Source: Escherichia coli
GTDB lineage: Bacteria > Pseudomonadota > Gammaproteobacteria > Enterobacterales > Enterobacteriaceae
DNA length: 64,000 bases
Assembly (NCBI RefSeq): GCF_003790525.1
Contig: NZ_CP033633.1
Strand: one strand, 5' to 3'
The notes under the pieces are model-generated. The model was not told the DNA's origin, ran no database searches, and saw only the letters and a list, made by a program, of their open reading frames with translations. Position numbers and translations under genes: made by a program. Positions 3,616 through 51,685 of the stretch are shown in pieces; within the stretch, counting starts at the first letter, position 1, and each line of letters opens with the position of its first letter.

Positions 3616-4035
3616 GATTGTGGCGGACAGGAAAACAATTAGAATAGCTGCGGGCGCTTGAGGCTGTATGCCGAAAGCGTTTTGTGGACGGCATGCAGCA
3701 GAAAGCCCCAGGCGATCTTTTTATCAATCAACCCAGGGCCCACTGTAATGCCTCAACAACATTATAGTAGCCCGATGACGGCCGAAAGGCAATGGAGGGG
3801 CTGCGATGCCACAACGAACGTTTTTAATAATGTTAATCGTCGTCTGTGTGACGATACTGTGTTTTGTCTGGATGGTGAGGGATTCGCTTTGCGGATTTCG
3901 TATCGAGCAGGGAAATACGGTGCTTGTGGCAACGTTAGCCTACGAAGTTAAACGTTAACGGGCAACACGGCGGCAGGACATCTGCCGCCGGATTGTTGCG
4001 AAGGCTGACCTCAATGCGCCTTGTTTGTCTTTTTT
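3616..4035. repeat. direct repeat copy 1 (~420 bp, ~95 percent identical to copy 2), non-coding element upstream of small gene A
   Basis: Aligned by eye against 4336..4755 (offset 720 bp); contains hairpin CGGCGGCAG-GACATC-CTGCCGCCG and a TATAAT on the minus strand; plus-strand ORF 3658..3951 inside it looks non-coding (Cys/Trp-rich). Confidence 0.8.
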
Positions 4036-4335: not shown

Positions 4336-4755
4336 GATTGTGGCAGACTGAAAATCGATTAGAATAGCGGCGGGCGCTTGAGGCTGTATGCTGAAAGCGT
4401 TTTGTGGACGGCATGCAGCAGAAAGCCCCAGGCGATTTTTTTATCAATCAACCCAGGGCTCTACTGTAATGCATCGACAACATTATAATAGCCCGATGAC
4501 GGCCGAAAGGCAATGGAGGGGCTGCGATGCCACAACGAACGTTTTTAATAATGTTAATCGTCGTCTGTGTGACGATACTGTGTTTTGTCTGGATGGTGAG
4601 GGATTCGCTTTGCGGATTCCGTGTCGAGCAGGGAAACACAGTGCTTGTGGCAACGTTAGCCTACGAAGTTAAACGTTAACGGGCAACACGGCGGCAGGAA
4701 ATCTGCCGCCGGATTGTTGCGAAAGCAAACCTCAATGCGCCCTTTTTTACCTGGA
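4336..4755. repeat. direct repeat copy 2 of the ~420 bp conserved element
   Basis: Near-identical to 3616..4035 with a few substitutions and a 1-bp indel near its end. Confidence 0.8.
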
Positions 4756-7961: not shown

Positions 7962-8531
7962 TCAGTACTGCCGGTGGGTAATGGCCAGCCATGTGGCCTG
8001 TTTCCAGCCGTGCCGGGCCTGCAGGTAATCGGGGAAGGTGCCCTGTTCGTCCTCGCTGACCCGCCGTTCATTCAGTTGCCAGAGGCGGTATGACACAATC
8101 AGGGTTTTTGAGGCACACAGTGCTGCAATGGCACTCATCAGTAACAGGCAGGCCAGTATACGTATCAGGGTGATGGCCGGAAGCGCTGTGGCAGCAAGGG
8201 CCATGCCGCACAGCAGAAGTACCGGTATCATCATCAGCCAGAATCCTGTCCGCCAGAACATCCTGCGACGTCGCAGACGCCGATCCAGTTCGTTGACCGT
8301 AAGGCCGCTGGCCCTGACGGCTTCTTCCCAGGTCATACAGACCGGACTCTCCGGTTGCCGGTCGGGCATGAGGCGCTTCAGGCGCGTTTTATGCTGGCCC
8401 AGCATATGGCGGCAGCTGCGCAGCATCCACCGGGTTTCGGCCAGTGGTGCGAACAGGTTTATCCCGATGTCACCGATGCGGCGGAGACGGGGGGCCGGTT
8501 TTTTTTTGTCGGTGCTGTTGTCGTCTTTCAT
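7962..8531 (-). CDS. traX: conjugal transfer membrane protein (TraX by position)
   Basis: 189 aa, basic N-terminus then two TM segments; position between traW and traY. Confidence 0.45.
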   Translation of the reverse strand: MKDDNSTDKKKPAPRLRRIGDIGINLFAPLAETRWMLRSCRHMLGQHKTRLKRLMPDRQPESPVCMTWEEAVRASGLTVNELDRRLRRRRMFWRTGFWLMMIPVLLLCGMALAATALPAITLIRILACLLLMSAIAALCASKTLIVSYRLWQLNERRVSEDEQGTFPDYLQARHGWKQATWLAITHRQY

Positions 8532-9733
8532 CTTACGCTCCCCTGGCTCATGGCCTGTGACAGTTCACCGAGACGCTGTCCGTAATACTGTCGTGCCGCC
8601 AGTGCCAGCTGCTGCCCGGCGATAACATTACCCTGGCGTATCTGCTCTTTCAGGTCGTTCATCTGCCAGTTCAGCAGGGCGGTAGTGCGCAGCAGTTCAC
8701 GGAGAAGGTTATCGCCTTCCATGCCCTGCAGATCCTGCTGCCAGTCGGTGTTTGCATAGCGTCTGCCGGCTTCAAAGGCCTCAAACTCCCGCTGGCTCAT
8801 GTGACCACGGGTGCGGGCCTCTGATGATGCGGTACGGTCAAAATATGCCGCAGCGGATGGTGACTGCAGGGCTTCAGTCAGTGCTCCACGGGTGGCCTCA
8901 TTAGGGGTACTGTCAGCTATCAGTGACAGTTGCGGATGAGAGGCGGCATCGATGATGCCGTTGTATTCATTCTGCAGGCCCACATACGTGCGCCCGGTCT
9001 GTGTTCCCACTTCACCTTTCCCCGGGGCACGACCCGCTGACGGTCTGGCGGTGTTTTTCATATAAGCCGTGGCGGCATCAATCTGTTTCTGATCCCAGGT
9101 GAGGGCGGCAGGGGTATCTGCTGTGCCTGCGCCCTGATAGAGCGATCGTACCTGGCTGTCTCCGCCCGGCAGATCGCCCACGGCAGGGCAGACATCGGTT
9201 CCGCCAAAGCGGGCATACTCCGCTTCCGTGCAGTAACCGGCGTGGATGCCGGCACTGTCATACGCCTCGCGGACCGGGGAGTCTGCAGCCCGGGAGAGAC
9301 GTTCCCGGATGGGTTTACTGCTGACCCCTCCCCCCTGACTCAGACGTGCCGCTGCAGACGCTGCTGCCCGGCGGCTTTCTGCTGCAATGCCGGACGCGGA
9401 TTCACTGCAGATGGAGTCCGGCACGCTGAAGCTTTTCCTGGCCTCCTCGAGGCGGTGTGTTTCATTACTGAATATCATCTGCTGACGGGTGGCCTGCCCG
9501 TCCTGGGCAATGACGGTGGCCAGTTTTTCTGAGTTCTGGGTGATGGCTGTGCCGGTGGCCGTCTGCATACGGACCATCTCTGCCATCACGCCCTGAATGG
9601 CGGCCAGCTCCGGCATGATCTGTCGGGTGACCGGCTGACTGGACACAACATTCACAGAGTAGGCATGGGTGGCAGGGATAACCGCACAGCCTATCAGGAG
9701 TGCAAGCAGTGTGGTTGCAGATTGTCTTTGCAT
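8528..9733 (-). CDS. traW: conjugal transfer lipoprotein (TraW by position); start taken at internal ATG 9733
   Basis: Track ORF 8528..9838; internal Met gives signal peptide MQRQSATTLLALLIGCAVIPATHA and about 401 aa. Confidence 0.5.
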   Translation of the reverse strand: MQRQSATTLLALLIGCAVIPATHAYSVNVVSSQPVTRQIMPELAAIQGVMAEMVRMQTATGTAITQNSEKLATVIAQDGQATRQQMIFSNETHRLEEARKSFSVPDSICSESASGIAAESRRAAASAAARLSQGGGVSSKPIRERLSRAADSPVREAYDSAGIHAGYCTEAEYARFGGTDVCPAVGDLPGGDSQVRSLYQGAGTADTPAALTWDQKQIDAATAYMKNTARPSAGRAPGKGEVGTQTGRTYVGLQNEYNGIIDAASHPQLSLIADSTPNEATRGALTEALQSPSAAAYFDRTASSEARTRGHMSQREFEAFEAGRRYANTDWQQDLQGMEGDNLLRELLRTTALLNWQMNDLKEQIRQGNVIAGQQLALAARQYYGQRLGELSQAMSQGSVR

Positions 9734-10311
9734 TCTTTTTTCTCCGTTTTCGGGGGATACAGGATGTCTGGTACGCGATGACTGAGTGATTCCGGCAGCG
9801 GAGCCAGCGGGAAACACTGGAAGCGGCGCGTGATCCATCCCTGACGGTTACGGTTATCGATGAGCGTGAAGGTACGACGCTTCACGCGTTTCAGTGTCGG
9901 GGTGTCGCTTTCCATGACCGGCCAGTCTCCGGCTGTGAGTGCCGGTGTGCCGTGGACATCCGGCCACAGCCAGGTGTTGTCAGACATCAGCGCAGTGAGT
10001 GGTGCGGGCAGAAGCCAGTGAATGACATGCTGTATATCAAAAGGCGGTCGCTCCGGCACGTTAACCTGCCAGGTGGCCGTTGTTATCAGCGTGCCTGTCT
10101 CTCCGGGCAGGGCCAGGCGAATACCACTCATCTCCCCGTCAGCCCGTCTGTCACTGGCAAAAATGACCCGGGGATTGGGGGACGGTCGCAGTGTGAAGCA
10201 GGCGGACGGCAGGGTGAAGCTGAAACTGTCACCGTCCACGCGCAGCGTTTTCAGGAAGACCTGTCCCCGTGCAGGACGCCGGCAGCGGGGAGTGATGTGT
10301 ATGCTGTACAT
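9694..10311 (-). CDS. traV: conjugal transfer protein (TraV by position)
   Basis: 205 aa ORF tightly packed between traU and traW. Confidence 0.4.
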   Translation of the reverse strand: MYSIHITPRCRRPARGQVFLKTLRVDGDSFSFTLPSACFTLRPSPNPRVIFASDRRADGEMSGIRLALPGETGTLITTATWQVNVPERPPFDIQHVIHWLLPAPLTALMSDNTWLWPDVHGTPALTAGDWPVMESDTPTLKRVKRRTFTLIDNRNRQGWITRRFQCFPLAPLPESLSHRVPDILYPPKTEKKECKDNLQPHCLHS

Positions 10312-13300
10312 CAGAGGTGATATCCCTGCTTACGGATGAGTTCCGCAGCCAGATCATGGATGACGTTTTCACTGTCATGTGTACGGGCGCGGTGTTCTAT
10401 CAGTGAGGTGGCTGAACCACGGGGAAAGTTTTCTGCCAGGATCTGGCGTGCCCGCAGTGACCCGAGCTCCTGCGTCAGCGCACGTCTCAGGGCGCTGTCT
10501 TTGGGTGAGGAATTCAGAGCCCACAGCTCCAGTGGACCGAGAGTGAATTTCAGGATCCGGGCCAGCGTACCGTTTTTTACACGGAACACAGCCAGTACCG
10601 GGACACCGCTGCCATCCGGTGCAGCCCCTTCCGGCATTTTCAGAAAGCGCCGCAGGGTGACTTCAGGGACACCAAAATTATCCCGCAGAAACGGAATTTC
10701 GTCAGGGCGGTAACGCAGCAACCAGAGGGTGTTGGCGGATTTGAGAACTGCCGGTGGATAGTCCTGCAGTAGCTGGGTGCTCAGCACTGTGCGTATCCCG
10801 AACTTACGCTGCTCCAGCTCCTGGGTGTCCAGGGCTTCCCAGATGAAGTTGATCCCTTTTGCATTGTGCAGTTCGTCATAGACTTTGGTCTTGACCTCCT
10901 GATCAAGCTGTTCAATGCGGCGGAAAATCACCTCATGGTAGCGTGGGTCGAGATTTTTCCGTATTTCCTCCTGATACTGCGGCAGGACAAAATCCCCGCC
11001 GGCGATTTGTCCTGCCAGCAGGTACATGATGCCGGTGCGCAGACGCCCGGCAGGTGTCTTGTCACCGGCCACATTGTTCAGATCAACGGCCACAACGCGG
11101 GTGTCGGGGCTGAGCATAAACCGGGTACAGCCGGACATCATCGGGTAGTCACTGTGTCCCTGATCGAGGGCACGGCGGATGTAGTCCAGTAACAATTCTG
11201 CTGAGTTATCGCGCTGAACTGTGCCGAACACATCCCGGATGGATGGCTGTCCCAGCAGGGCGGACATTTCAGCCAGCAGGGGCATGGCCTGGTAGTGTGC
11301 CCGCTGGGCTGCGGGGATATTGCCAGCCATATGCAGCATGTCCCTGATTTCAAACCAGGTGGCAGCATTCCACCATCCGGCATCATGTTGTTCTGCGATG
11401 CCACTCTCTTCCAGGGCGAGATCCACAAGGGGCTCTGTTCCTGCACGGTACAGTCTGGGGTTGTTTTCGCCATACTCCCTGAAGGCCAGATCCACCAGGT
11501 TGCTTATGATTTGCCGGGTGTCACCGGGATTACAGGGCTGACCGGTGCCGGTATCCACGCACAGTGCGCAGAGTACAGATACCATGAAGTTCTTTTCCGG
11601 GGTGGCGGGTTTTTTAGCACCGTACATCACATCAAACAGGTTACGGGTGTGTTCCGGATCATTGCTCAGAATGATCCCCACGGCTTCGTCCTTTCTCTGC
11701 TCCGGCAGGCTGTCACGGATAAGCTGTACCAGTCCCTGTGCACTGAATCCCTTGTCGATATAGGCAATGAAAGGCAGGTTCTTCTGGGCTGAGGCTATCT
11801 GGATCTCCGACAGTGCGTTGATGAGTACCGATTTGCCCAGACCGGGTGCGCCGGGCGTCAGTTCCGTGTGCTTGTTCTGTTGTGACGATGCCAGCGCGAC
11901 CTCCCATGCAGAGCCGTCTTCGGTGTGCATCATCAGATTTCCCTGTCCCCGCCAGACAGAGCCGGCCCTGTTCAGGGGAAACAGGGAAAGGGCGTGTGAA
12001 AGGGGCGGGTAAAGGGGGACTGGACCGGAACCGTGGGAGGCCGCCAGAACCGTGTTCACCCAGGCACGTCTCGGATCACCGAAGGTGGTGGTGGTGCCGC
12101 ATACTCCCCAGCCTTCCAGCGCAGATTTCAGGAGAGCCTGGTTGCGGGTACAGACTTCCCGGCTGTTTCCCCATGTGGTGGCAACAATGGTCATGATACA
12201 GACCGGATCATGTTTGTTGATGTCATTCAGCATCATCACCGAGTCATACATGGGCCGGAGAGGGGAAATAAAGCTGCTGTAGGTCAGCAGGGTTTTCTTG
12301 ACCCCAAGCGCCTTCATGCCGCCGGGCATCAGATCCATCCGGATACGCCAGGGGATTGCGCGGGGCACATCCCTGACCAGCTGGTTGAATGTCCGCAGAT
12401 TCTGGGGTGGCAGGGTAATGGCGACCATACCGTGCCAGAGGTCACCGGCCTTTATCAGGCTGCCGTGTGTTTCAGGCTGTGTGGTGAATAACTGCAGATT
12501 CAGCGACGGTGCGTGGAATACAGAGGTATCCTCGCCCTGTCGCCAGCCGGCAGGACGGGCATCTTCAGGCAGATGAGGCTGCCATACTGCAGGTGTGCTG
12601 TTGCGCTCCAGTTGACGGCGGATTTCCCGTCCCACTTCATGAATATCCATCAGGCGAACCAGCAGACCATCAGAATCATGTGTCAGGGCCTGCTCCAGCG
12701 TGTCCAGAAAGGCGTCATGCCGTATTTTGAGTGCGGAAAGTGTCCAGCGCCATGGATCCTGCGCAAATCGGGCTGGCGGAGCGTGTTCAGCGAGTTTCCT
12801 GATACGGGTCTGGTGGTCCTTGCGATCGGTCCGGCTCAGCAGTTCTTCAGAGCTCCAGACGGTCAGCCAGCAGCGTTCCCGGACAAGCCAGGGGGTGAGC
12901 GTGGTGACTTTTTCATCCAGAACGTCCTGAAGCAGGATCCCCGTACGTGCGATGGATTTTCGCTGGGGTAAGAGCATGGCTTCGATTTCATCCCTTCCAC
13001 GCTCCGGATCGCGTTCGAAAACAAAACTGATTTTGTGACCGGTGTTTTTATAGGCAGTGTTCATTCGCTCTGCCAGCGCTGTTATCAGTGATTCCAGTGT
13101 GCCGGGGGCTGTCAGGTCCGGGTTTTCATCCATTTCTTTCAGGGCACCGCTGATTTCAAAGACGGAAAGGTAATACCCCTGTTTTGTGGTGGCAATGTAG
13201 GGGGCTTTCAGCCAGGGGCGGCGTTCGCGGTCCTGCTGGTCCAGACCGATGACGGTGTGCAGATCACAGTAATCGGGGAAGAATGCGGAAACGGAATACC

Positions 13301-42422: not shown

Positions 42423-44042
42423 TCAGATGATATTGGGCGTGATCAGCACCACGAGAATGGTGTCGTCGTTTTCACTGTTGATCCCACCGCCAAGACCGAA
42501 GAATCCCGGCGTGCCTACACCCTGTTTTCCGCTGCGACGTCCTGACTGCTGGAAGCCACTGATAATGACCGTCTGCCCGGATTTCAGATCCACGGTCTGA
42601 TTGATGGTTTTCAGATCCACATTCGGCAGCTGGGCTTTACTTCCACCGCTCTCATAATTCTCAATAACCGGTTTGTCGGAGAGACTCATGGAATAGAGCA
42701 ACTGCAGTGTCTGTGAGTCCGGGAGAATGAACGGCAGAAGGGTCATGTTAAAACCGGTGGTGATGGTGGCCGCATTCAGGGAGGTGGATGAGCCGACATT
42801 GGCAGTGGTATCCGTCGTCACACTCTCGATGTAACTCTGCTGATTGGCGATCTGCATTGGCACCGGCGTCAGGTTTTTGGTGACGGCAGAGTGCTGGGTC
42901 ACCACACTGACAACCCCCTGGGAAGACAATGCTTTCAGGAAGGCTTTTGAACCGGTGAGTTTACCGTCCACAATGGAAACACCACCTGTGATGGCATCAC
43001 TGGCTGCACTGGTGAATGTGCTGCCGAGACTCAGTCCCAGCGTTCTGTCGCTGAAGACTGCGTTCCAGTCGATACCGGCCTGCTCATTGCGGGTTTTCCG
43101 GATACTCAGAATTTCCACATTCAGCACCACCTGACGTTTCATCTCTTCATTGCGTTTTTCAATGAATGCCCGGACCGTTTCCAGAACCTGTGGATTATCT
43201 GTGACGGTTATAAAGCCCGTGGACATGAACATGCGTCCGATACCCGGGGTCAGCATTGATGTGACCGCATTTTTCACATCCTGATACAGCGCAGACTTCA
43301 TATCCACGGTGGTGGTCTGGGTATTGCTGGCATCACCGGAAATGGCATCTGATGCACTGCCTCCTGATGAGCCGTTTGAGGACATGGTGCCGCTGACCAC
43401 AGTGGCGTTATAGGTCACCTGACTGTCCATATAGGTGATGGGGAAGGTCTGTGTCTCGAGATAATAGAAGATGATATGCGAGCCGTCATAGCGCCAGGAT
43501 ATACCGAGACGGGAGGAGACCGCATTCAGCAGGGTCGTCAGGCCGGAGGCATTCAGTTCAGACAGTGCTGCGGTATTTCCCGGCAGACGGGATGATGGCG
43601 TGTCAGATGCGCCAATGGCGGCAAGGGGAACCATGCCGCTTGCATCCGGTGGGGGTAACGCGCCCTGGATTTGTTGTGTGCTGCCGGTTGTGGATGTATT
43701 CAGGTATGTCAGTACATCAGGTGTGATCCGTACAGGAATATGGCAGCTTTCCGTGATCCGCTGAACCACCTGCTGAAGGGTGATGCTCTGACGGGTATGA
43801 ATGACAATGGGACAACCGGGAACGGTTTTGCCGGTGTTTTTATCCATGACCGGACGGGGATTGATCCATTGTCGAGAGGATTCCTTAACAACCGGCGTCC
43901 GGGTTCGCAGATCAGACATCATTTCCCGTGCCCGTTGTTGTTCCGCAACGGCTTCCTTTCTTGTGCTCTCAAGCTGTCTGTAACTGGCACAGCCCTGTAA
44001 CAGAGCGGCGGCAATCATAATGGCAAGAATTTTTTTATTCAT
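42423..44042 (-). CDS. pilN: secretin-family lipoprotein PilN
   Basis: 539 aa; lipobox ALLQGCAS; secretin-like C-terminus ...DDTILVVLITPNII. Confidence 0.8.
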   Translation of the reverse strand: MNKKILAIMIAAALLQGCASYRQLESTRKEAVAEQQRAREMMSDLRTRTPVVKESSRQWINPRPVMDKNTGKTVPGCPIVIHTRQSITLQQVVQRITESCHIPVRITPDVLTYLNTSTTGSTQQIQGALPPPDASGMVPLAAIGASDTPSSRLPGNTAALSELNASGLTTLLNAVSSRLGISWRYDGSHIIFYYLETQTFPITYMDSQVTYNATVVSGTMSSNGSSGGSASDAISGDASNTQTTTVDMKSALYQDVKNAVTSMLTPGIGRMFMSTGFITVTDNPQVLETVRAFIEKRNEEMKRQVVLNVEILSIRKTRNEQAGIDWNAVFSDRTLGLSLGSTFTSAASDAITGGVSIVDGKLTGSKAFLKALSSQGVVSVVTQHSAVTKNLTPVPMQIANQQSYIESVTTDTTANVGSSTSLNAATITTGFNMTLLPFILPDSQTLQLLYSMSLSDKPVIENYESGGSKAQLPNVDLKTINQTVDLKSGQTVIISGFQQSGRRSGKQGVGTPGFFGLGGGINSENDDTILVVLITPNII

Positions 44043-44072: not shown

Positions 44073-44510
44073 CTAATTCATCCAGAGGATGACGTGATCG
44101 GGGATCACCGACGGAAGTGTGACGGAAAGCGCTCTGCCGGCGGTGTCCAGCAGCCGGCCGTTTTCCACCCTGCCGAGGAGGGCAGAGTCATGACTCTGTT
44201 CCCTGAGGGCGGCCATCAGGCCCGGGGTTTCTGTGGCCCAGACAAAAACACGTTGCTGGCTGATGATATGACTGACGGTATCCGTCCCGGGAAGCCCGAG
44301 CTGAGCGGATGTCAGCCGCCCTCCGGCTGTCCGTCGTTCCGGATTCTGATGCAGGTAATCATTGATGGCGTTCATATAACGAATGAACGTTGCTGCCTGT
44401 TGTGTGTTTTCTGCGGCCTGATGACGGTGTTCGCTGCGGGAGAGCTGACTGGTGAACCAGAAATTGCCGGTGGTCGTGATGACCATGATGAACACGATGA
44501 ACCAGCCCAT
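44073..44510 (-). CDS. pilM: pilus assembly protein PilM
   Basis: 145 aa with N-terminal TM; size matches R64 PilM. Confidence 0.5.
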   Translation of the reverse strand: MGWFIVFIMVITTTGNFWFTSQLSRSEHRHQAAENTQQAATFIRYMNAINDYLHQNPERRTAGGRLTSAQLGLPGTDTVSHIISQQRVFVWATETPGLMAALREQSHDSALLGRVENGRLLDTAGRALSVTLPSVIPDHVILWMN

Positions 44511-44514
44511 AAGG

Positions 44515-45585
44515 TTATTCCTGTGGACGATCTGTCACCCGCAGCAGACATTGTGCTGTGCTGGTCCGGGCATACAGCGGTTTTTCCACCGGGGTGTAGA
44601 GTGCAAATAGCTGTTCCAGCGCCTGGCGGAAACTGCCGGTGAAAACCAGAGGAGCATCGATGCTGTAGTTGACAGGTGTTTCCCAGCGCAGTGTCCATGT
44701 GCCGTGCGGGCATTTTTCGGATGATGTCCAGCGGGCCAGTCCGTCTTTCAGGGTGGTCCCCTTTTCCATTTTCCACTGCCGTGGCGGTATGACCTTCTGC
44801 GGTGGTGTCACTACCGGTTTCGTGGCCACCGGGGCTGGCGTGGTTGTTCTGCTCTCTGGTGTTCCGGATGTCCCGGTGGTGGTCTGAGCCCGGGATACGC
44901 TGACGGCAGGTGGTACCTGTGCCTGGTCTGCCGCTGTTCCGGTTGTGCTCCTGAACGGATTACGTGGTGTGTCCGCTGTTTTCTGTGAACCCTGCGGTGT
45001 CGTGACGTCGACCGGCGGTGTTGCAGAGGTCGTGACAGTCAGTATTTTCCTGTTCCAGTCCATATGTCCGTAAAGCTGCTGGCCGGCCAGCAGCGCATTC
45101 AGTGCCCGGTGCCACTGGTCATTAACGGACCAGGAAGGGAGGCGTTTGTTCAGTGCCGGTGTGGCGGCATTCTGCTGGCGGAACTGCCAGCCGGTTGGCA
45201 GCAGCTGGCGTATCCAGTCACTGACGGTGCGCTGACGTGCTTCACGTAAATAAACGACGGATGAGGGACCGGGCTTACCGGTCATAACCAGTGCAGACAG
45301 CGGTGTGGCCTGAAGAAGCGGGCGGGGAGGCAGTGCGGTACTCTGGCTGCTGACAGTGGTTGAGGGTGTCGCCGTTGTTGTCGGACGGGGCGGTGTCACA
45401 GGGCGGGTCACCGGTGGCGGAAGCAGACGTTTTTGCGTATGGGTGATAATGGCAGCACTTTCGCGAATTTGTCCGTCGACGAACACCAGAGCCGGAGGCG
45501 TGGTATCCGGAACAGGCGTGGCATTAAATGCCGTACAGCCGCTGAGTAATGACGGCAGAAGGAGTGTCAGTGATTTCTTTTGCAT
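44515..45585 (-). CDS. pilL: pilus assembly lipoprotein PilL
   Basis: 356 aa; lipobox LLSGCTAF; Pro/Thr-rich linker; size matches R64 PilL. Confidence 0.6.
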   Translation of the reverse strand: MQKKSLTLLLPSLLSGCTAFNATPVPDTTPPALVFVDGQIRESAAIITHTQKRLLPPPVTRPVTPPRPTTTATPSTTVSSQSTALPPRPLLQATPLSALVMTGKPGPSSVVYLREARQRTVSDWIRQLLPTGWQFRQQNAATPALNKRLPSWSVNDQWHRALNALLAGQQLYGHMDWNRKILTVTTSATPPVDVTTPQGSQKTADTPRNPFRSTTGTAADQAQVPPAVSVSRAQTTTGTSGTPESRTTTPAPVATKPVVTPPQKVIPPRQWKMEKGTTLKDGLARWTSSEKCPHGTWTLRWETPVNYSIDAPLVFTGSFRQALEQLFALYTPVEKPLYARTSTAQCLLRVTDRPQE

Positions 45586-45706
45586 AGAATATAATCCGGT
45601 ATATTACGGGTTACGGTATAAGACAGGTGGCGGGTAACTGGCCTTCAGATGAATATCATTTCATCGGGTTATTGATGATGAACCTTAAAAATCACAGAGG
45701 TGATGC

Positions 45707-46102
45707 ATGATAAAGAAGATGTGGCGTTATTTACGGCAAATTGATAAGTATGAATTGCTGCAGCAGGTGATTTCAGTACATGAAGTGGAACTGCTCAGGA
45801 AAATGATGACAGATTCATTATTAGGGTGCTCAGTAGGATATGTGTTTTCGAAAATACTGAAGATATTCTTTCTGCGTTTTATTCAGTCTGAGGGGGGATG
45901 GGATATTATTACTTACTTTTTGTGGATGCTGGGAATACTTATTGTCATGGCCGCGCTGTTTATCTGGATGTGCGCCGCTGTATGCTATGAGCTTCGGATG
46001 TATAAAATAAAAACAGGAAGGGAGAACGATATATTATTCTGGGTGTGGATTCTTCTTTTTGATGTCGCGGTTGTATTTTCGCTGGGTAATGTTATCTGGT
46101 GA
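45707..46102 (+). CDS. hypothetical membrane protein, 131 aa, AT-rich
   Basis: Plus-strand ORF in an AT-rich block upstream of pilL; two or three TM segments. Confidence 0.3.
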   Translation: MIKKMWRYLRQIDKYELLQQVISVHEVELLRKMMTDSLLGCSVGYVFSKILKIFFLRFIQSEGGWDIITYFLWMLGILIVMAALFIWMCAAVCYELRMYKIKTGRENDILFWVWILLFDVAVVFSLGNVIW

Positions 46103-46534
46103 TTATGGGTTCAGTGACATATGGAAAAAGATAAGTGCGAACATTGATACTGAAGAATAATATATCCAGGAATAGAAAAACATGAATTTCGGAGATGGTT
46201 TCTTCTGTCTCCTGTTTTTCAGGGGAGTCTGTGGGTCAAATGTTATCAGCGTCATTAAAGGATACCCTTTCATAAGAATAAAAATATAGACGCATAAATG
46301 AGCGTAAAGAGGTAACCTGTCCTGCCAGAACAGAATCATCATGATGACGGCAAGATGAAATGTCGTTACATTGATATAATAAAACCAGCTGTATTTACGC
46401 AGATACTGTTGGATATTCACGCTGTCAGCATGCGGTTCTGGTGAACAATTTATGCAAAAACAGAAGAAAGAAATGATGATGAACACGGTCAGAGTGACCG
46501 GTAATACAGTCACAAGCAGAAAGAGTATGGACAT
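46103..46534 (-). CDS. hypothetical polytopic membrane protein, 143 aa, AT-rich
   Basis: Converges on the preceding ORF with zero spacing; could alternatively be a divergent PilK-like gene. Confidence 0.3.
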   Translation of the reverse strand: MSILFLLVTVLPVTLTVFIIISFFCFCINCSPEPHADSVNIQQYLRKYSWFYYINVTTFHLAVIMMILFWQDRLPLYAHLCVYIFILMKGYPLMTLITFDPQTPLKNRRQKKPSPKFMFFYSWIYYSSVSMFALIFFHMSLNP

Positions 46535-46606
46535 AAAAATATCTCCGTCAGGATAGTGTGATTATTCCTTTATGGTTCCATAACCCGGCGTAGCTCCGTC
46601 GACTGG

Positions 46607-46849
46607 TTATAATTTTATCCGGGACCTGGCTTTAAGGGGTAATGCCACCTCTTTCCATTCACTACAGCTTCCGGGAATACGTTCTGTGCGTCGTATTATT
46701 CGTGTGTTCTGGCATACAATAATCAGGGCATTGTCTGCCGTCTGAAATGGCATTATAGCGATGTTTATATCTTCTGTTGCAGGAATATAACTGACTTTCT
46801 TTTCACATGTATTGGTGTATATGACAACTCTGAATTTTTCTGCGGACAT
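46607..46849 (-). CDS. small hypothetical protein, about 80 aa, downstream of flotillin gene
   Basis: Internal ATG at 46849 with AGAGGA 8 nt upstream (track ORF 46607..46924). Confidence 0.3.
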   Translation of the reverse strand: MSAEKFRVVIYTNTCEKKVSYIPATEDINIAIMPFQTADNALIIVCQNTRIIRRTERIPGSCSEWKEVALPLKARSRIKL

Positions 46850-46929
46850 TTTCAATCCTCTTTTAAGCCAGAATATCCCGTGAGGGCATTCTTTGTGAAA
46901 AAGATGCCGGAAAAATTCCGGCACGGGGA

Positions 46930-48624
46930 TTAAACCTGTTGTGGTTCTGAGTTATCCGGAGTGGTTACCGGTTCGCTGACATCCGGAACCTTTTCCGGGG
47001 CAGGCATGACCAGTGGACGTGTCAGGGCTGTAAGTCCTTCACCGGATAAACCCACCTCTTTCAGCAGGGAGTCGATGAGCGGAGCCTGTGTACGGTAAGC
47101 CAGAGCGGCGGTTACTGCCTGTTCAGCGAGATTTCCGCCACTTATGTCGGTTGTTGCTGTTTTACCGCGGGTAACACCGCCATTCAGACCATCCACCTGA
47201 ATGATTTTAATACCGTCAATGGATTTCATTGGTTCTGTGGACTTCTCTATGACGGCAGGTAATGCATCCAGCAGGGCAAGACGGAAGCGGAGGCTGGTCT
47301 GCTCATCCGAAAGCACGTTAATGGCATCGTTCAGTGCGCGCTGTGCTTCTGCTTCTGCCAGACCTTTCTGACGGGTGGCCTCCGCCAGTTCAATAATTGC
47401 TGCTGCCTGGAGTTCGGCTGCTTCTTTTTCAGCCTGTGCGCGAACCGTCAGTTCAACCGCTTTCGTTTCAGCTTCCTGAGCAGCAGCAATCAGGGCAACC
47501 TGTTTGGTACGGCCGGCCTCTGCAGTCTGGCGGGTGGTTTCCACATCCTGCTGGGCCTGTACGGCCTCAGCCAGTGCTTTACTTGCCCGGGCTTCTGCCT
47601 GTGACTGCTCTTCCGATTTTGCCGCCACGGCAATGGCTCTGGCCTGGCTGGCGATTTCGGTTGCCTGCTGTTGTTCAATTTCCCGTATGGCCACTTCCCG
47701 TTCGGCTTCGACCTGGCGGGTACGCACTATCTGCTGTCGTTCGATTTCGGCTTCCTCTATCTTACGTTCAGCCAGAATTCGCGCGGATTCTGCTTCACGA
47801 CGTCGTTCAGCTTCAATAGCAGCAATACTGGCACTCTGCTCTGCCGTACGGGTTTTTACCCGTTGTTGTTGCTCCAGAGTCATGAAGGCTTCCTGCTGTT
47901 CAATCTCCAGACGTCGGGAGAGTGCATCCCGGTTTTTTTCCCTGATGGCCACTTCAACATCCTGCTCAACTTCGTTGCGTTCGCGGCGACGACGTTCTGT
48001 TTCCTGGGTCAGAAGGGTCAGGCCTTCAGCATCAAAGGCATTGTCAGGATTAAAATGTACCCGTGCAGTCTGGTTGAAACTTGTCAGCGACACACTTTCA
48101 AGCTCCAGACCGTTTTTGGATAAGTCTTCCGCAACGGTGTTCTGCACACCCTGAACAAAGTTCTCGCGGGCATCCTGTAAATCCTGCATGCTCATTCTGG
48201 CCGCCGTGGCCCGTAGGGCATCAACAAATTTATCCTCGACCAGACTACGCAGATCTTCAGGTGTGAGCGTGCGTTGTCCCAGCGTCTGGGCTGCAGTGGA
48301 TATTCCTTCGGCTGATGGTTTTACCCGAAGAAAAAAGGCAACGGCAACATCAACACGCATGCGGTCGCGGGTTATGAGACTTTCAGCCGCTGCACGACTG
48401 ACTTCCAGCTTCAGGGTGTTCATGTTGACGGGAATTGTTTCGTGAAAAATGGGCATAACAATTGCACCGCCACTCATTACCACTTTTTGGCCTCCCAGAC
48501 CTGTGCGGACAAAGGCCTGCTCTGCCGATGCCCGGCGGTACAGGCGGGCAAATATCAGCCCGATAACGAACAGGGTGAGGACCAGCGCTATAACGGTAAA
48601 CAACCATCCCGGAAGATTAAACAT
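46930..48624 (-). CDS. flotillin-like SPFH/band-7 protein (YqiK-like)
   Basis: 564 aa; N-terminal TM, SPFH-like domain, then long Ala/Glu/Arg/Gln-rich coiled coil; paired with an upstream NfeD-like gene. Confidence 0.8.
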   Translation of the reverse strand: MFNLPGWLFTVIALVLTLFVIGLIFARLYRRASAEQAFVRTGLGGQKVVMSGGAIVMPIFHETIPVNMNTLKLEVSRAAAESLITRDRMRVDVAVAFFLRVKPSAEGISTAAQTLGQRTLTPEDLRSLVEDKFVDALRATAARMSMQDLQDARENFVQGVQNTVAEDLSKNGLELESVSLTSFNQTARVHFNPDNAFDAEGLTLLTQETERRRRERNEVEQDVEVAIREKNRDALSRRLEIEQQEAFMTLEQQQRVKTRTAEQSASIAAIEAERRREAESARILAERKIEEAEIERQQIVRTRQVEAEREVAIREIEQQQATEIASQARAIAVAAKSEEQSQAEARASKALAEAVQAQQDVETTRQTAEAGRTKQVALIAAAQEAETKAVELTVRAQAEKEAAELQAAAIIELAEATRQKGLAEAEAQRALNDAINVLSDEQTSLRFRLALLDALPAVIEKSTEPMKSIDGIKIIQVDGLNGGVTRGKTATTDISGGNLAEQAVTAALAYRTQAPLIDSLLKEVGLSGEGLTALTRPLVMPAPEKVPDVSEPVTTPDNSEPQQV

Positions 48625-48650
48625 AGTGAGAACCTCTGTATATGTCGGGA

Positions 48651-49271
48651 TTAAAGAACATCCGGCCAGGGATTCAGTTCGCCCAGCCAGCGGGAACCGG
48701 AAAGACGGCAGACAATAATCACTTTGTCTCCTCGTCTGAATTCTTTCCCGGCCTCCGGCTCCAGCAACAGGTAATGAACCTGCCCGAAGCGGTCTGTGAA
48801 GCGACCTTCACAGGGGGAACCCGCCACTGCGTGATAACCGGTGATGGTGGCCATACAGCCGATGAATGCCTCCTCGGTGAGCGCCGTTGTTTCATCACGG
48901 GGTAACCAGGGGGCAATCAGTCTGCCGGTGCGGTGTACGAGAGGACATGTCAGCAGCAGGCAAAGTGGTGTAAGGAGAATGTTCGGGGCAGGAGCCTGCA
49001 GCAGATGAATAATAAGACCCTGCAGGAGAATGCCGGATATACCAAAAAAACCTGCCAGCATACAGAGGACGATCAGCAGGGGGATCCGTCCGATGTTCAG
49101 CCAGTCCAGCGCCTCTCCTGTCAGCCCCTCCGGTAAATCAGGTGTATCCATAGCTGAAGAGAGGGAGTGTCCGCAGAGCAGGGCGATAAGTTCAGCGATA
49201 CCAGTAAGCAGAACAAAAGTCAGGGCTGCCAGATAGGGTGCGTTATACGCGGTAAGTAACGCCAGTGTCAT
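48651..49271 (-). CDS. NfeD-like membrane protein (YqiJ-like)
   Basis: 206 aa; polytopic N-terminal region plus C-terminal soluble OB-like domain; immediately upstream of the flotillin gene. Confidence 0.65.
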   Translation of the reverse strand: MTLALLTAYNAPYLAALTFVLLTGIAELIALLCGHSLSSAMDTPDLPEGLTGEALDWLNIGRIPLLIVLCMLAGFFGISGILLQGLIIHLLQAPAPNILLTPLCLLLTCPLVHRTGRLIAPWLPRDETTALTEEAFIGCMATITGYHAVAGSPCEGRFTDRFGQVHYLLLEPEAGKEFRRGDKVIIVCRLSGSRWLGELNPWPDVL

Positions 49272-51051: not shown

Positions 51052-51531
51052 ACAGGATTAATGGCTGGCAAATATATTACATAAGGATGTATCTGTGGCA
51101 ATAGTGAATATAAGTAGTTGAATAGATCGTTATATTTGATAAATAAGCGTATTATGCTGATTTGTGTGCAGTGTCTGGAGGATTAGATCGCTTAAAAATT
51201 TTAGGCGATCTCTTCTACTAAAAATGATGAAAAAAACAGCATAAAAGATCGTTTGTGAAATTGTTCATTTTTTGACACAGTTCAAAAAAACGACGCTTTT
51301 TAGGGGGTTAAAGAGGGCAACTGTAACCCTGAGAAATCGTGTCGGCTTTTCAAAGCGGTGGAAAAGGGGTATATTGCGGATCGTTATTCAGTGGCTTTTG
51401 GGATCCTCGCGGTCCGGAAAGCCAGAAAACGGCAGAATGCGCCATAAGGCATTCAGGATGTATGGCAGAAACGACGGCAGTTTGCCGGTGCCGGAAGGCT
51501 GAAAAAAGTTTCAGAAGGCCATAAAGGAAAA

Positions 51532-51582
51532 CCCCCATAATCTTCTCATCGAACTTGGCGGAACGTTAGAAGATTATGGGGG
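51532..51582 (-). ncRNA. candidate antisense copy-control RNA region (CopA/Inc-RNA-like stem-loop in repA leader)
   Basis: Perfect 15-bp inverted repeat CCCCCATAATCTTCT / AGAAGATTATGGGGG with about 21 nt loop, about 100 bp upstream of repA; promoter and 3' end not mapped. Confidence 0.35.
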
Positions 51583-51608
51583 CCTCACAGAATACGGGAT
51601 AAGTATAT

Positions 51609-51650
51609 ATGAAACCGTGTCAGAGATTCAACCCTTCGCAGTGTATTAAC
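51609..51650 (+). CDS. possible repA leader peptide (13 aa)
   Basis: ATG AAA CCG TGT ... TAA ([13 protein letters not shown]) 36 bp upstream of the repA start. Confidence 0.25.
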
Positions 51651-51685
51651 GCACGGCATTCTGTTTCCGCCATAAGCGACAGCTT

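Follow-up and report, generated by a model that had tools for sequence, protein, structure and literature searches.

Among the closest described counterparts of the locus considered here is the head of the type IVb thin-pilus operon of plasmid R64 (IncI1), in which two genes, pilJ and pilK, occupy the slot between pilI and pilL. The pilJ/pilK block is AT-rich (GC 0.33-0.39), and its two products, neither of which belongs to a Pfam family, each combine two to three N-terminal transmembrane (TM) helices with a soluble C-terminal domain. PilK is reportedly an inner-membrane protein. Here we describe the equivalent slot in a 64,000-nucleotide stretch of Escherichia coli DNA (contig NZ_CP033633.1, assembly GCF_003790525.1; hereafter the window), which comes from a conjugative plasmid of IncK2/Z type (I-complex). 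Plasmids of the IncK2 group are prominent vehicles of blaCMY-2 in E. coli from poultry and from humans, and their mating in liquid and in the gut depends on the thin pilus. In the window the slot holds two convergent open reading frames (ORFs), termed here gene A (143 amino acids (aa), on the pil strand) and gene C (131 aa, on the opposite strand). Comparison with sister plasmids shows that the pilI-pilL slot of IncB/O/K/Z (I-complex) plasmids is the site of a hypervariable accessory cassette, and that A and C are its IncK2-type version.

The window and R64 share the slot itself, AT-rich DNA and small proteins with N-terminal TM helices, and A lies on the same strand as pilJ and pilK. They differ in that A is all-membrane, with four predicted TM helices, whereas the R64 proteins carry soluble domains; moreover, the R64 slot contains no antisense gene, and the window cassette is missing from most sister plasmids. 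Two other systems bear comparison. In the pore-forming colicin/immunity locus of ColIb-P9, a sister IncI1 plasmid, the colicin gene (8294-10174, plus strand) and the immunity gene (10192-10539, minus strand) are likewise convergent and closely abutting, and one of the two encodes a small inner-membrane protein with three to four TM helices. Here, however, each of the two genes encodes a small membrane protein, a colicin-like toxin is absent, and loss of either gene occurs. An analogy can also be drawn with prophage 'morons' and with membrane proteins of superinfection exclusion, such as lambda RexB, P22 SieA/SieB and T4 Imm. Like them, the window has a small inner-membrane gene of deviant base composition that is inverted within an operon-rich region; this gene comes with a ribosome-binding site of its own and possibly a terminator, is variable among elements that are otherwise nearly identical, and can be dispensed with. 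The window cassette is carried by a plasmid and not by a phage, and is not known to confer an exclusion phenotype.

Two predicted membrane-protein genes fill the slot between pilI and pilL

The slot is bordered upstream by pilI, the conserved first gene of the pil cluster, and downstream by pilL, the first conserved core gene of the thin-pilus operon, whose position is equivalent to that of pilL in R64 (Table 1). Within the slot gene A lies on the pil strand, yet the antisense gene C stands between A and pilL. The TGA stop codon of C (46100-46102) abuts the TTA at 46103-46105 that is the complement of the TAA of A, and the spacing is exactly zero. The initial annotation of the window had described a low-GC block at 45600-46600 in which a plus-strand membrane ORF of 131 aa and a minus-strand membrane ORF of 143 aa converge at zero spacing, in place of R64's pilI, pilJ and pilK. 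Coordinates, GC content and hydropathy all agree with the convergent pair. The AT-rich block is real and extends from ~45590 to 46850, so that it takes in pilI. The replacement, in turn, holds for pilJ and pilK but not for pilI, which is present immediately beyond the range given: the PilI gathering score is passed by the ORF neighbouring A and C, and by neither A nor C.

GC content is 0.394 in C, 0.380 in A, 0.40 in pilI and 0.59 in pilL, with a mean of 0.517 over the whole window. The low GC of A and C arises mostly at codon positions 1 and 2 (GC2 0.29-0.31, GC3 0.47), and reflects the Ile/Leu/Phe-rich composition of membrane proteins more than a foreign origin. Recent foreign acquisition was rejected as the main explanation of the low GC, since GC3 is close to the window mean and the R64 slot is equally AT-rich.

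Topology prediction from hydropathy gives four TM helices for A, with a Lys/Arg-rich loop between TM3 and TM4, and three TM helices for C, preceded by a charged N-terminal stretch of ~40 aa. The secondary structure predicted by AlphaFold is consistent with these helices in both proteins, and the AlphaFold2 (AF2) model of C contains four helices, with a predicted local distance difference test score (pLDDT) of 68.8. A is probably an inner-membrane protein with four predicted TM helices, and C is probably an inner-membrane protein with a cytoplasmic N-terminus and three.

Several observations bear on whether these ORFs are genes. When the 1021-bp interval between pilL and pilI was shuffled 2000 times with dinucleotide composition preserved, the longest ORF had a mean length of 76 aa; in 0.75% of the shuffles it reached 143 aa, and none (0/2000) contained one ORF of at least 143 aa together with another of at least 131 aa. 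Both ORFs have suitably spaced Shine-Dalgarno (SD) sites: GAGGTGAT at 45697-45704, which ends 2 nucleotides (nt) before the ATG of C, and GGAG at 46543-46546, 8 nt upstream of the ATG of A. Read in its own frame, each ORF follows the order GC2 < GC1 < GC3. Intact 143-aa alleles of A with 90-92% identity occur in many independent contigs, and C is intact over the tested segment in 91/91 complete type-A plasmids. The Prokaryotic Genome Annotation Pipeline (PGAP) calls C a hypothetical protein (WP_032354078 / WP_276170865). On sequence evidence, both A and C are real protein-coding genes.

Sister plasmids carry a divergent allele of C and a fused paralogue of A

A second type of cassette is found in IncK2/Z and IncB/O plasmids, examples being NZ_CP024887 (locus L003), NZ_CP075699 (L004) and Logan contigs L009-L016. 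In this type-B slot the order is pilI, A, a 295-aa protein B, an antisense gene C_B (141-146 aa) and pilL. The type-B cassette and that of the window are true homologues, which share A at 90-92% identity, the slot position, the tail-to-tail pairing and the pilL-proximal intergenic region; the window differs in lacking B, and its C abuts A directly. An A-family gene and C converge in both types, with an overlap of 8-11 nt between B and C_B in type B and a spacing of 0 nt in the window.

B consists of two A-like modules fused in tandem. Each of these halves shares 27-30% identity with A, and 18 columns are invariant between A and both halves, including LPV, Y..W-F and a terminal NP. C_B is 33-38% identical to C_A, the allele of the window, with 37 invariant residues that include the block V-x-LLR-xx-MTDSLL-x-CS-x-G-x-VF and an EGG motif; the latter is encoded by a G6 run in the C_A of the window and by GAG GGT GGT in the C_B of type B. 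Smith-Waterman z-scores, computed against 1000 composition-preserving shuffles, are 18.6 for A and the N-terminal half of B, 17.7 for A and the C-terminal half, and 21.1 for C_A and C_B. A is not related to C (hhalign probability 0.7%, z -1.2). As aligned here, the A family is small and fast-evolving and consists of three paralogous modules, A and the two halves of B, on the pil strand. The ratio of non-synonymous to synonymous polymorphism (pN/pS), based on 8-39 substitutions per comparison, is 0.41-0.57 for A, 0.33-0.41 for B and 0.43-0.53 for C_B.

At 27-38% aa identity, frames that are still open on the strands observed rule out spurious ORFs. The suggestion in the initial annotation that the plus-strand ORF might be spurious is therefore contradicted, both by the existence of a second allele of C at the same position and in the same orientation and by the PGAP annotation.

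Slot contents are exchanged and deleted among plasmids that share the flanks

Plasmids typed as IncK2/Z, mostly from poultry, are 99-99.9% identical to the window over a 1.6-kb stretch around A and C. The 121-bp intergenic region from the pilL start to the C start (45586-45706) is ~95% identical in all layouts up to ~45683, as seen in a seven-locus alignment, and the last ~24 nt before the ATG of C, with the SD site among them, are part of the window-specific cassette. At the opposite edge, L009-type loci are homologous throughout A, and the homology breaks exactly at its stop codon. These breaks in flank homology define a window-specific segment of ~45684-46102, essentially gene C_A, which stands where type-B plasmids have ~1.4 kb made up of a spacer, B and C_B. 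The two alleles of C, which are ~35% identical as proteins, lie between flanks that are ~95% identical.

The flanks are shared by 465 PLSDB records, and 148 of these carry either family; by subtraction, about two-thirds of the flank-sharing records have no cassette. The A and C families are each found in 148 PLSDB records with an identical organism breakdown, and the genes are always convergent and abutting. This remainder has a 'simple' slot (L017-L020), which consists of pilI, a gene for an unrelated 111-aa Cys-containing soluble hypothetical protein that belongs to no Pfam family, and pilL. In L017 (NZ_CP032260; 888-1235, 1013-1348) the first ~29 codons of C_B are kept, fused to unrelated sequence, and because of this remnant the simple layout looks like a deletion derivative. 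The simple-slot plasmids keep the sequenced part of pilL, at which the fetched loci end, and are typed as conjugative. Furthermore, pilI, pilJ and pilK are entirely absent from IncI2 plasmid TP114 and from the S. Typhi pil cluster (PMC9045228, PMC6232867). As the cassette is gone from about two-thirds of sister plasmids and pilI/J/K are absent elsewhere, the cassette does not belong to the core pilus machine.

A mosaic slot in NZ_CP075699 (L004:3637-4333) contains a 122-aa homologue of the simple-type soluble protein, a 5'-truncated A (a 79-aa ORF), B and C_B, and is evidence for recombination between slot types. In NZ_CP024887 (L003:3131-3640) an orphan 169-aa two-TM protein replaces pilI together with the flotillin gene pair described below; its only matches are weak and sub-threshold (PADLOC '2TM effector', E 0.007; Pfam TrbE, E 0.03).

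Either gene can be disrupted beside an intact partner

Three kinds of natural variant separate the two genes. In L005 a deletion of ~137 nt takes away the start of C and leaves A intact, and in L022-L024 C is frameshifted by a G7 tract beside an intact A. Conversely, in L021 C is intact and A has a frameshift near codon 103, where C4 has become C5, with loss of TM4. These are single natural variants; at least in these isolates, tolerance of one gene appears not to depend on the other. Since either gene is found knocked out beside its intact partner, an obligate toxin-antidote pair is unlikely.

The tract concerned in C encodes the invariant EGG motif, and several draft assemblies (P0020-P0022, L022-L024) have a frameshift here, with tract lengths of G5, G7 and probably G10. 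Phase variation at this tract was considered and rejected as a general feature, all 91 of 91 complete PLSDB plasmids having G6.

The cassette has no detectable relatives outside E. coli-group plasmids

The minus-strand ORF had been proposed as a possible divergent PilK, but no homology to PilK was found. R64 PilJ (150 aa) and PilK (196 aa) were taken from NC_005014. Similarity to PilK was absent by BLASTP (E > 2), by hhalign with the A and C family profiles (0.2%) and by Smith-Waterman (z -0.6 and -0.2), and an exhaustive search of 1.84 billion representative proteins with the A profile contained no PilK relative. Similarity to PilJ was likewise absent by BLASTP (E 0.43) and by Smith-Waterman (z 1.1 for A, 2.4 for the N-terminal and 1.6 for the C-terminal half of B), and the hhalign comparison with PilJ found a 15-column QQYLxxY motif only, at 4% probability. 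Homology of A or C to PilJ or PilK was accordingly rejected by all three approaches, and A is instead a real gene of its own in the slot. PilJ and PilK are orphans too, and different I-complex lineages fill the slot with different orphan membrane proteins.

Neither A, B nor C matches a family in Pfam, NCBIfam, PADLOC or PHROG, and no toxin, antitoxin or immunity domain is recognisable in them by these collections. The PADLOC-DB defence models give no match at E <= 1 to A, B, C_A or C_B; there is no sequence match to SieB or RexAB among the PADLOC and PHROG models, and none of the colicin and colicin-immunity families of Pfam is matched. A sub-threshold, FtsX-like Pfam hit of C (E 0.0023, 18 bits, cutoff 25.5) was rejected and taken as an effect of TM composition. 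Profiles of the A and C families match no sequence in the PDB, and a fold search of the PDB with the AF2 model of C found no match (best E 2.4). Rfam recognises no known RNA in the AT-rich block.

The exhaustive hidden Markov model search with the A-family profile, among the same 1.84 billion representatives, returned six proteins, all of them family members or fragments. For C, a word-indexed profile search yielded hypothetical proteins of E. coli alone, namely the two allelic types and truncations. As far as these searches reach, the cassette is restricted to E. coli-group plasmids, with no detectable relatives elsewhere.

Predicted transcription signals

Terminator-like and promoter-like sites precede pilI (Table 1), and suggest that pilI may start a transcription unit that contains A. 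No terminator-like site was found on the minus strand between A and pilL. On the plus strand a hairpin inside A is a possible, though uncertain, candidate for the terminator of C; A genes of the L009 type, which lack a neighbouring C_A, contain it too, and its fold z-score is not significant relative to shuffles. The intergenic region contains -10-like hexamers (TATAAT at 45590-45595, plus strand) and no good -35 on either strand.

Because the spacing is zero, the mRNAs of A and C must overlap at their 3' ends. Moreover, transcription from pilI to pilL would have to cross C in antisense, and expression of C and read-through into pilL-V should therefore oppose one another.

The surrounding plasmid region

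The type IVb thin-pilus operon occupies the minus strand (Table 1). A repZ pseudoknot recognised by Rfam lies at 51524-51673, just upstream of repA. Upstream of the flotillin and YqiJ/NfeD-like genes on the minus strand come traC and then the NusG-like traB. The flotillin and YqiJ/NfeD-like pair (46930-49271) is present in some sister plasmids and missing from others (L003, L005), and many IncK2 records match the query only to position 1504 and are without the pair. Given this variable presence, the whole traC-pilL interval is an accessory-gene hot spot rich in membrane proteins.

A 93-aa ORF with a GTG start (45356-45637, plus strand) runs antisense to the 5' end of pilL and is open in sister loci too, for example at L003:5310-5543, L004:5829-6062 and L005:3763-4044; this part of pilL is GC-rich and Pro/Thr-rich, and the ORF is probably its shadow. 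Elsewhere in the window, two tandem Rfam matches to sok, the antitoxin RNA of hok/sok type, lie ~720 nt apart on the plus strand (3652-3808 and 4372-4529; 123 and 117 bits), and imply duplicated hok/pnd-like type I toxin-antitoxin loci.

Table 1. Features in and around the pilI-pilL slot of the window, in order of position.
Feature	Position	Strand	Remarks
pilN	42423-44042	-	thin-pilus operon
pilM	44073-44510	-	thin-pilus operon
pilL	44515-45585	-	356-aa TcpQ-domain lipoprotein; Pfam TcpQ E 1.6e-16; annotated in identical plasmids
Gene C (allele C_A)	45707-46102	+	131 aa; ATG ORF; divergent from pilL, convergent with A
G6 homopolymer in C	45892-45897	+	encodes invariant EGG motif
Gene A	46103-46534	-	143 aa; ATG ORF; pil strand, R64 pilJ/pilK position
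Terminator-like hairpin	46191-46222	+	8-bp stem and T-run; inside A, 89 nt downstream of C stop
pilI	46607-46849	-	80 aa; Pfam PilI PF10623 E 3.7e-31, 107 bits (cutoff 25); PGAP annotation
Promoter-like site	46899-46870	-	TTCACA-16/18-GATATT/TATTCT; just upstream of pilI
Terminator-like hairpin	46924-46904	-	GTGCCGGAATTTTTCCGGCAT and T-run; strong; directly after flotillin stop
Flotillin gene	46930-48624	-	SPFH/Band7 + Flot; between traC and pilI
YqiJ/NfeD-like gene	48651-49271	-	between traC and pilI

Discussion

We consider it somewhat better than an even chance that A and C form a dispensable, fast-evolving and plasmid-lineage-restricted accessory cassette of two inner-membrane protein genes in the pilI-pilL slot. 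According to this model, A would share a transcript with pilI and the remainder of the pil operon, as the layout suggests, and would act as a lineage-specific inner-membrane accessory in the position of PilJ and PilK, to which it is not homologous. C would be a self-contained, moron-like antisense unit that brings its own ribosome-binding site and shares its upstream region with pilL, and its transcription would oppose read-through into pilL-V. The products of A and C would most likely be inner-membrane modulators or exclusion-type factors.

Several points count against this model. A is without annotation in every RefSeq and PLSDB record examined ('none' under all 100% tblastn matches), unlike B and C, both of which are annotated as hypothetical proteins; this absence is a systematic PGAP omission. 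Constraint, as estimated by pN/pS from the small numbers of substitutions given above, is only moderate. The AF2 model of A is poor (pLDDT 48.6), and relaxed scans of the intergenic region found no convincing sigma-70 promoter for C or for pilL. A full-text literature search found no paper that mentions A or C. The modulator or exclusion role and the transcriptional opposition are both features that we infer from layout alone, and the co-occurrence of A and C could simply reflect their adjacency.

A different account, which we regard as unlikely, is that A and C are a cognate membrane toxin/immunity or exclusion-specificity pair, in which C is a small effector that damages membranes or excludes, the A family supplies its protectors or partners, and two ancient allelic specificities are maintained by conflict-type selection. 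The strict co-occurrence of the two families would fit such a pair, as would the dimorphism of C between its conserved flanks, the expansion and fusion of A-family paralogues, and the combination of orphan status, AT-rich composition and relaxed pN/pS. The loss of C by deletion or frameshift in some isolates is what would be expected of a costly gene, and the tail-to-tail layout recalls the colicin/immunity genes of ColIb-P9. A and C are indeed two adjacent genes that occur together. However, the protector in such a pair should not go while the toxic partner stays, and L021 retains an intact C beside a frameshifted A, from which A appears dispensable unless the truncated protein works or C is silent. 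Nor is C generally counter-selected, being intact with G6 in all of the complete plasmids. No toxin, immunity or defence family is matched, no fold match was found for C, and there is no secretion or delivery domain. What remains of the earlier proposal of a horizontally acquired toxin/immunity-like pair is that the families co-occur and that C is swapped as a cassette; its functional assignment is supported by no family match, and either gene is lost singly.

It is also improbable, in our estimation, that A is a functional, non-homologous replacement of PilK (or PilJ) that is needed for the thin pilus, and that the importance of C lies chiefly in its convergent transcription, which would gate read-through from the pilI promoter into pilL-V in the manner of an excludon. 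A does occupy exactly the pilJ/K slot on the strand of the pil genes, it has an SD site, no terminator was found before pilL, and the title of Sakai and Komano (2002), as cited in PMC10286972, includes pilK among the genes required for thin-pilus biogenesis. Gating, for its part, is favoured by the retention of the 5' end of C and the intergenic region even in simple-slot plasmids that have lost the remainder, and by the zero or negative spacing that makes the 3' ends of the transcripts overlap. Against a required PilK substitute, most IncB/O/K/Z plasmids are without A, B and C but are typed as conjugative and have retained pilL-V, neither TP114 nor the S. Typhi cluster has pilI/J/K, and there is no sequence or profile similarity to PilK or PilJ. 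Against gating, C is conserved as a protein across its alleles, which a purely RNA-level role does not need, and the intergenic region is no better conserved than pilL.

Less likely again is a scheme in which an A-family protein and C form a cognate inner-membrane pair that exists in two types of ancient specificity, C_A paired with A and C_B paired with B, and serves as a hitherto unrecognised plasmid exclusion or immunity module within the leader of the thin-pilus operon. The convergent layout with zero spacing would, in this scheme, also make expression of C and of pilL-V mutually exclusive. If true, the cassette would tie a function in conflict to the choice of whether mating pili are built. 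Finally, that one or both ORFs are non-functional, whether they arose by chance or are remnants that decay in a recombination hot spot, would accord with the omission of A by PGAP, the lack of homologues outside the plasmid group, the frequent deletion or truncation of the region and the moderate constraint, but is very improbable given that no shuffle yields such an ORF pair, that frames are preserved at 27-38% identity (z 17-21), that SD sites are present, that full-length A alleles recur in many independent contigs and that C is intact in every complete type-A plasmid over the tested segment.

The comparison shows a recombination hot spot at the head of the pil operon, which holds non-homologous, lineage-specific membrane-protein cassettes: PilJ/PilK in R64, A with antisense C in the window, A with B and C_B in others, and, in most, a soluble 111-aa protein. 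The names 'pilJ' and 'pilK' are not transferable by position from R64 to IncB/O/K/Z plasmids. A concrete outcome is a conserved 143-aa gene that is missing from RefSeq annotation, together with two small orphan families that have allelic structure. A role of the pair in exclusion, immunity or the gating of expression, if proved, would be relevant to plasmid competition and host range; failing that, the cassette would be an ordinary accessory one.

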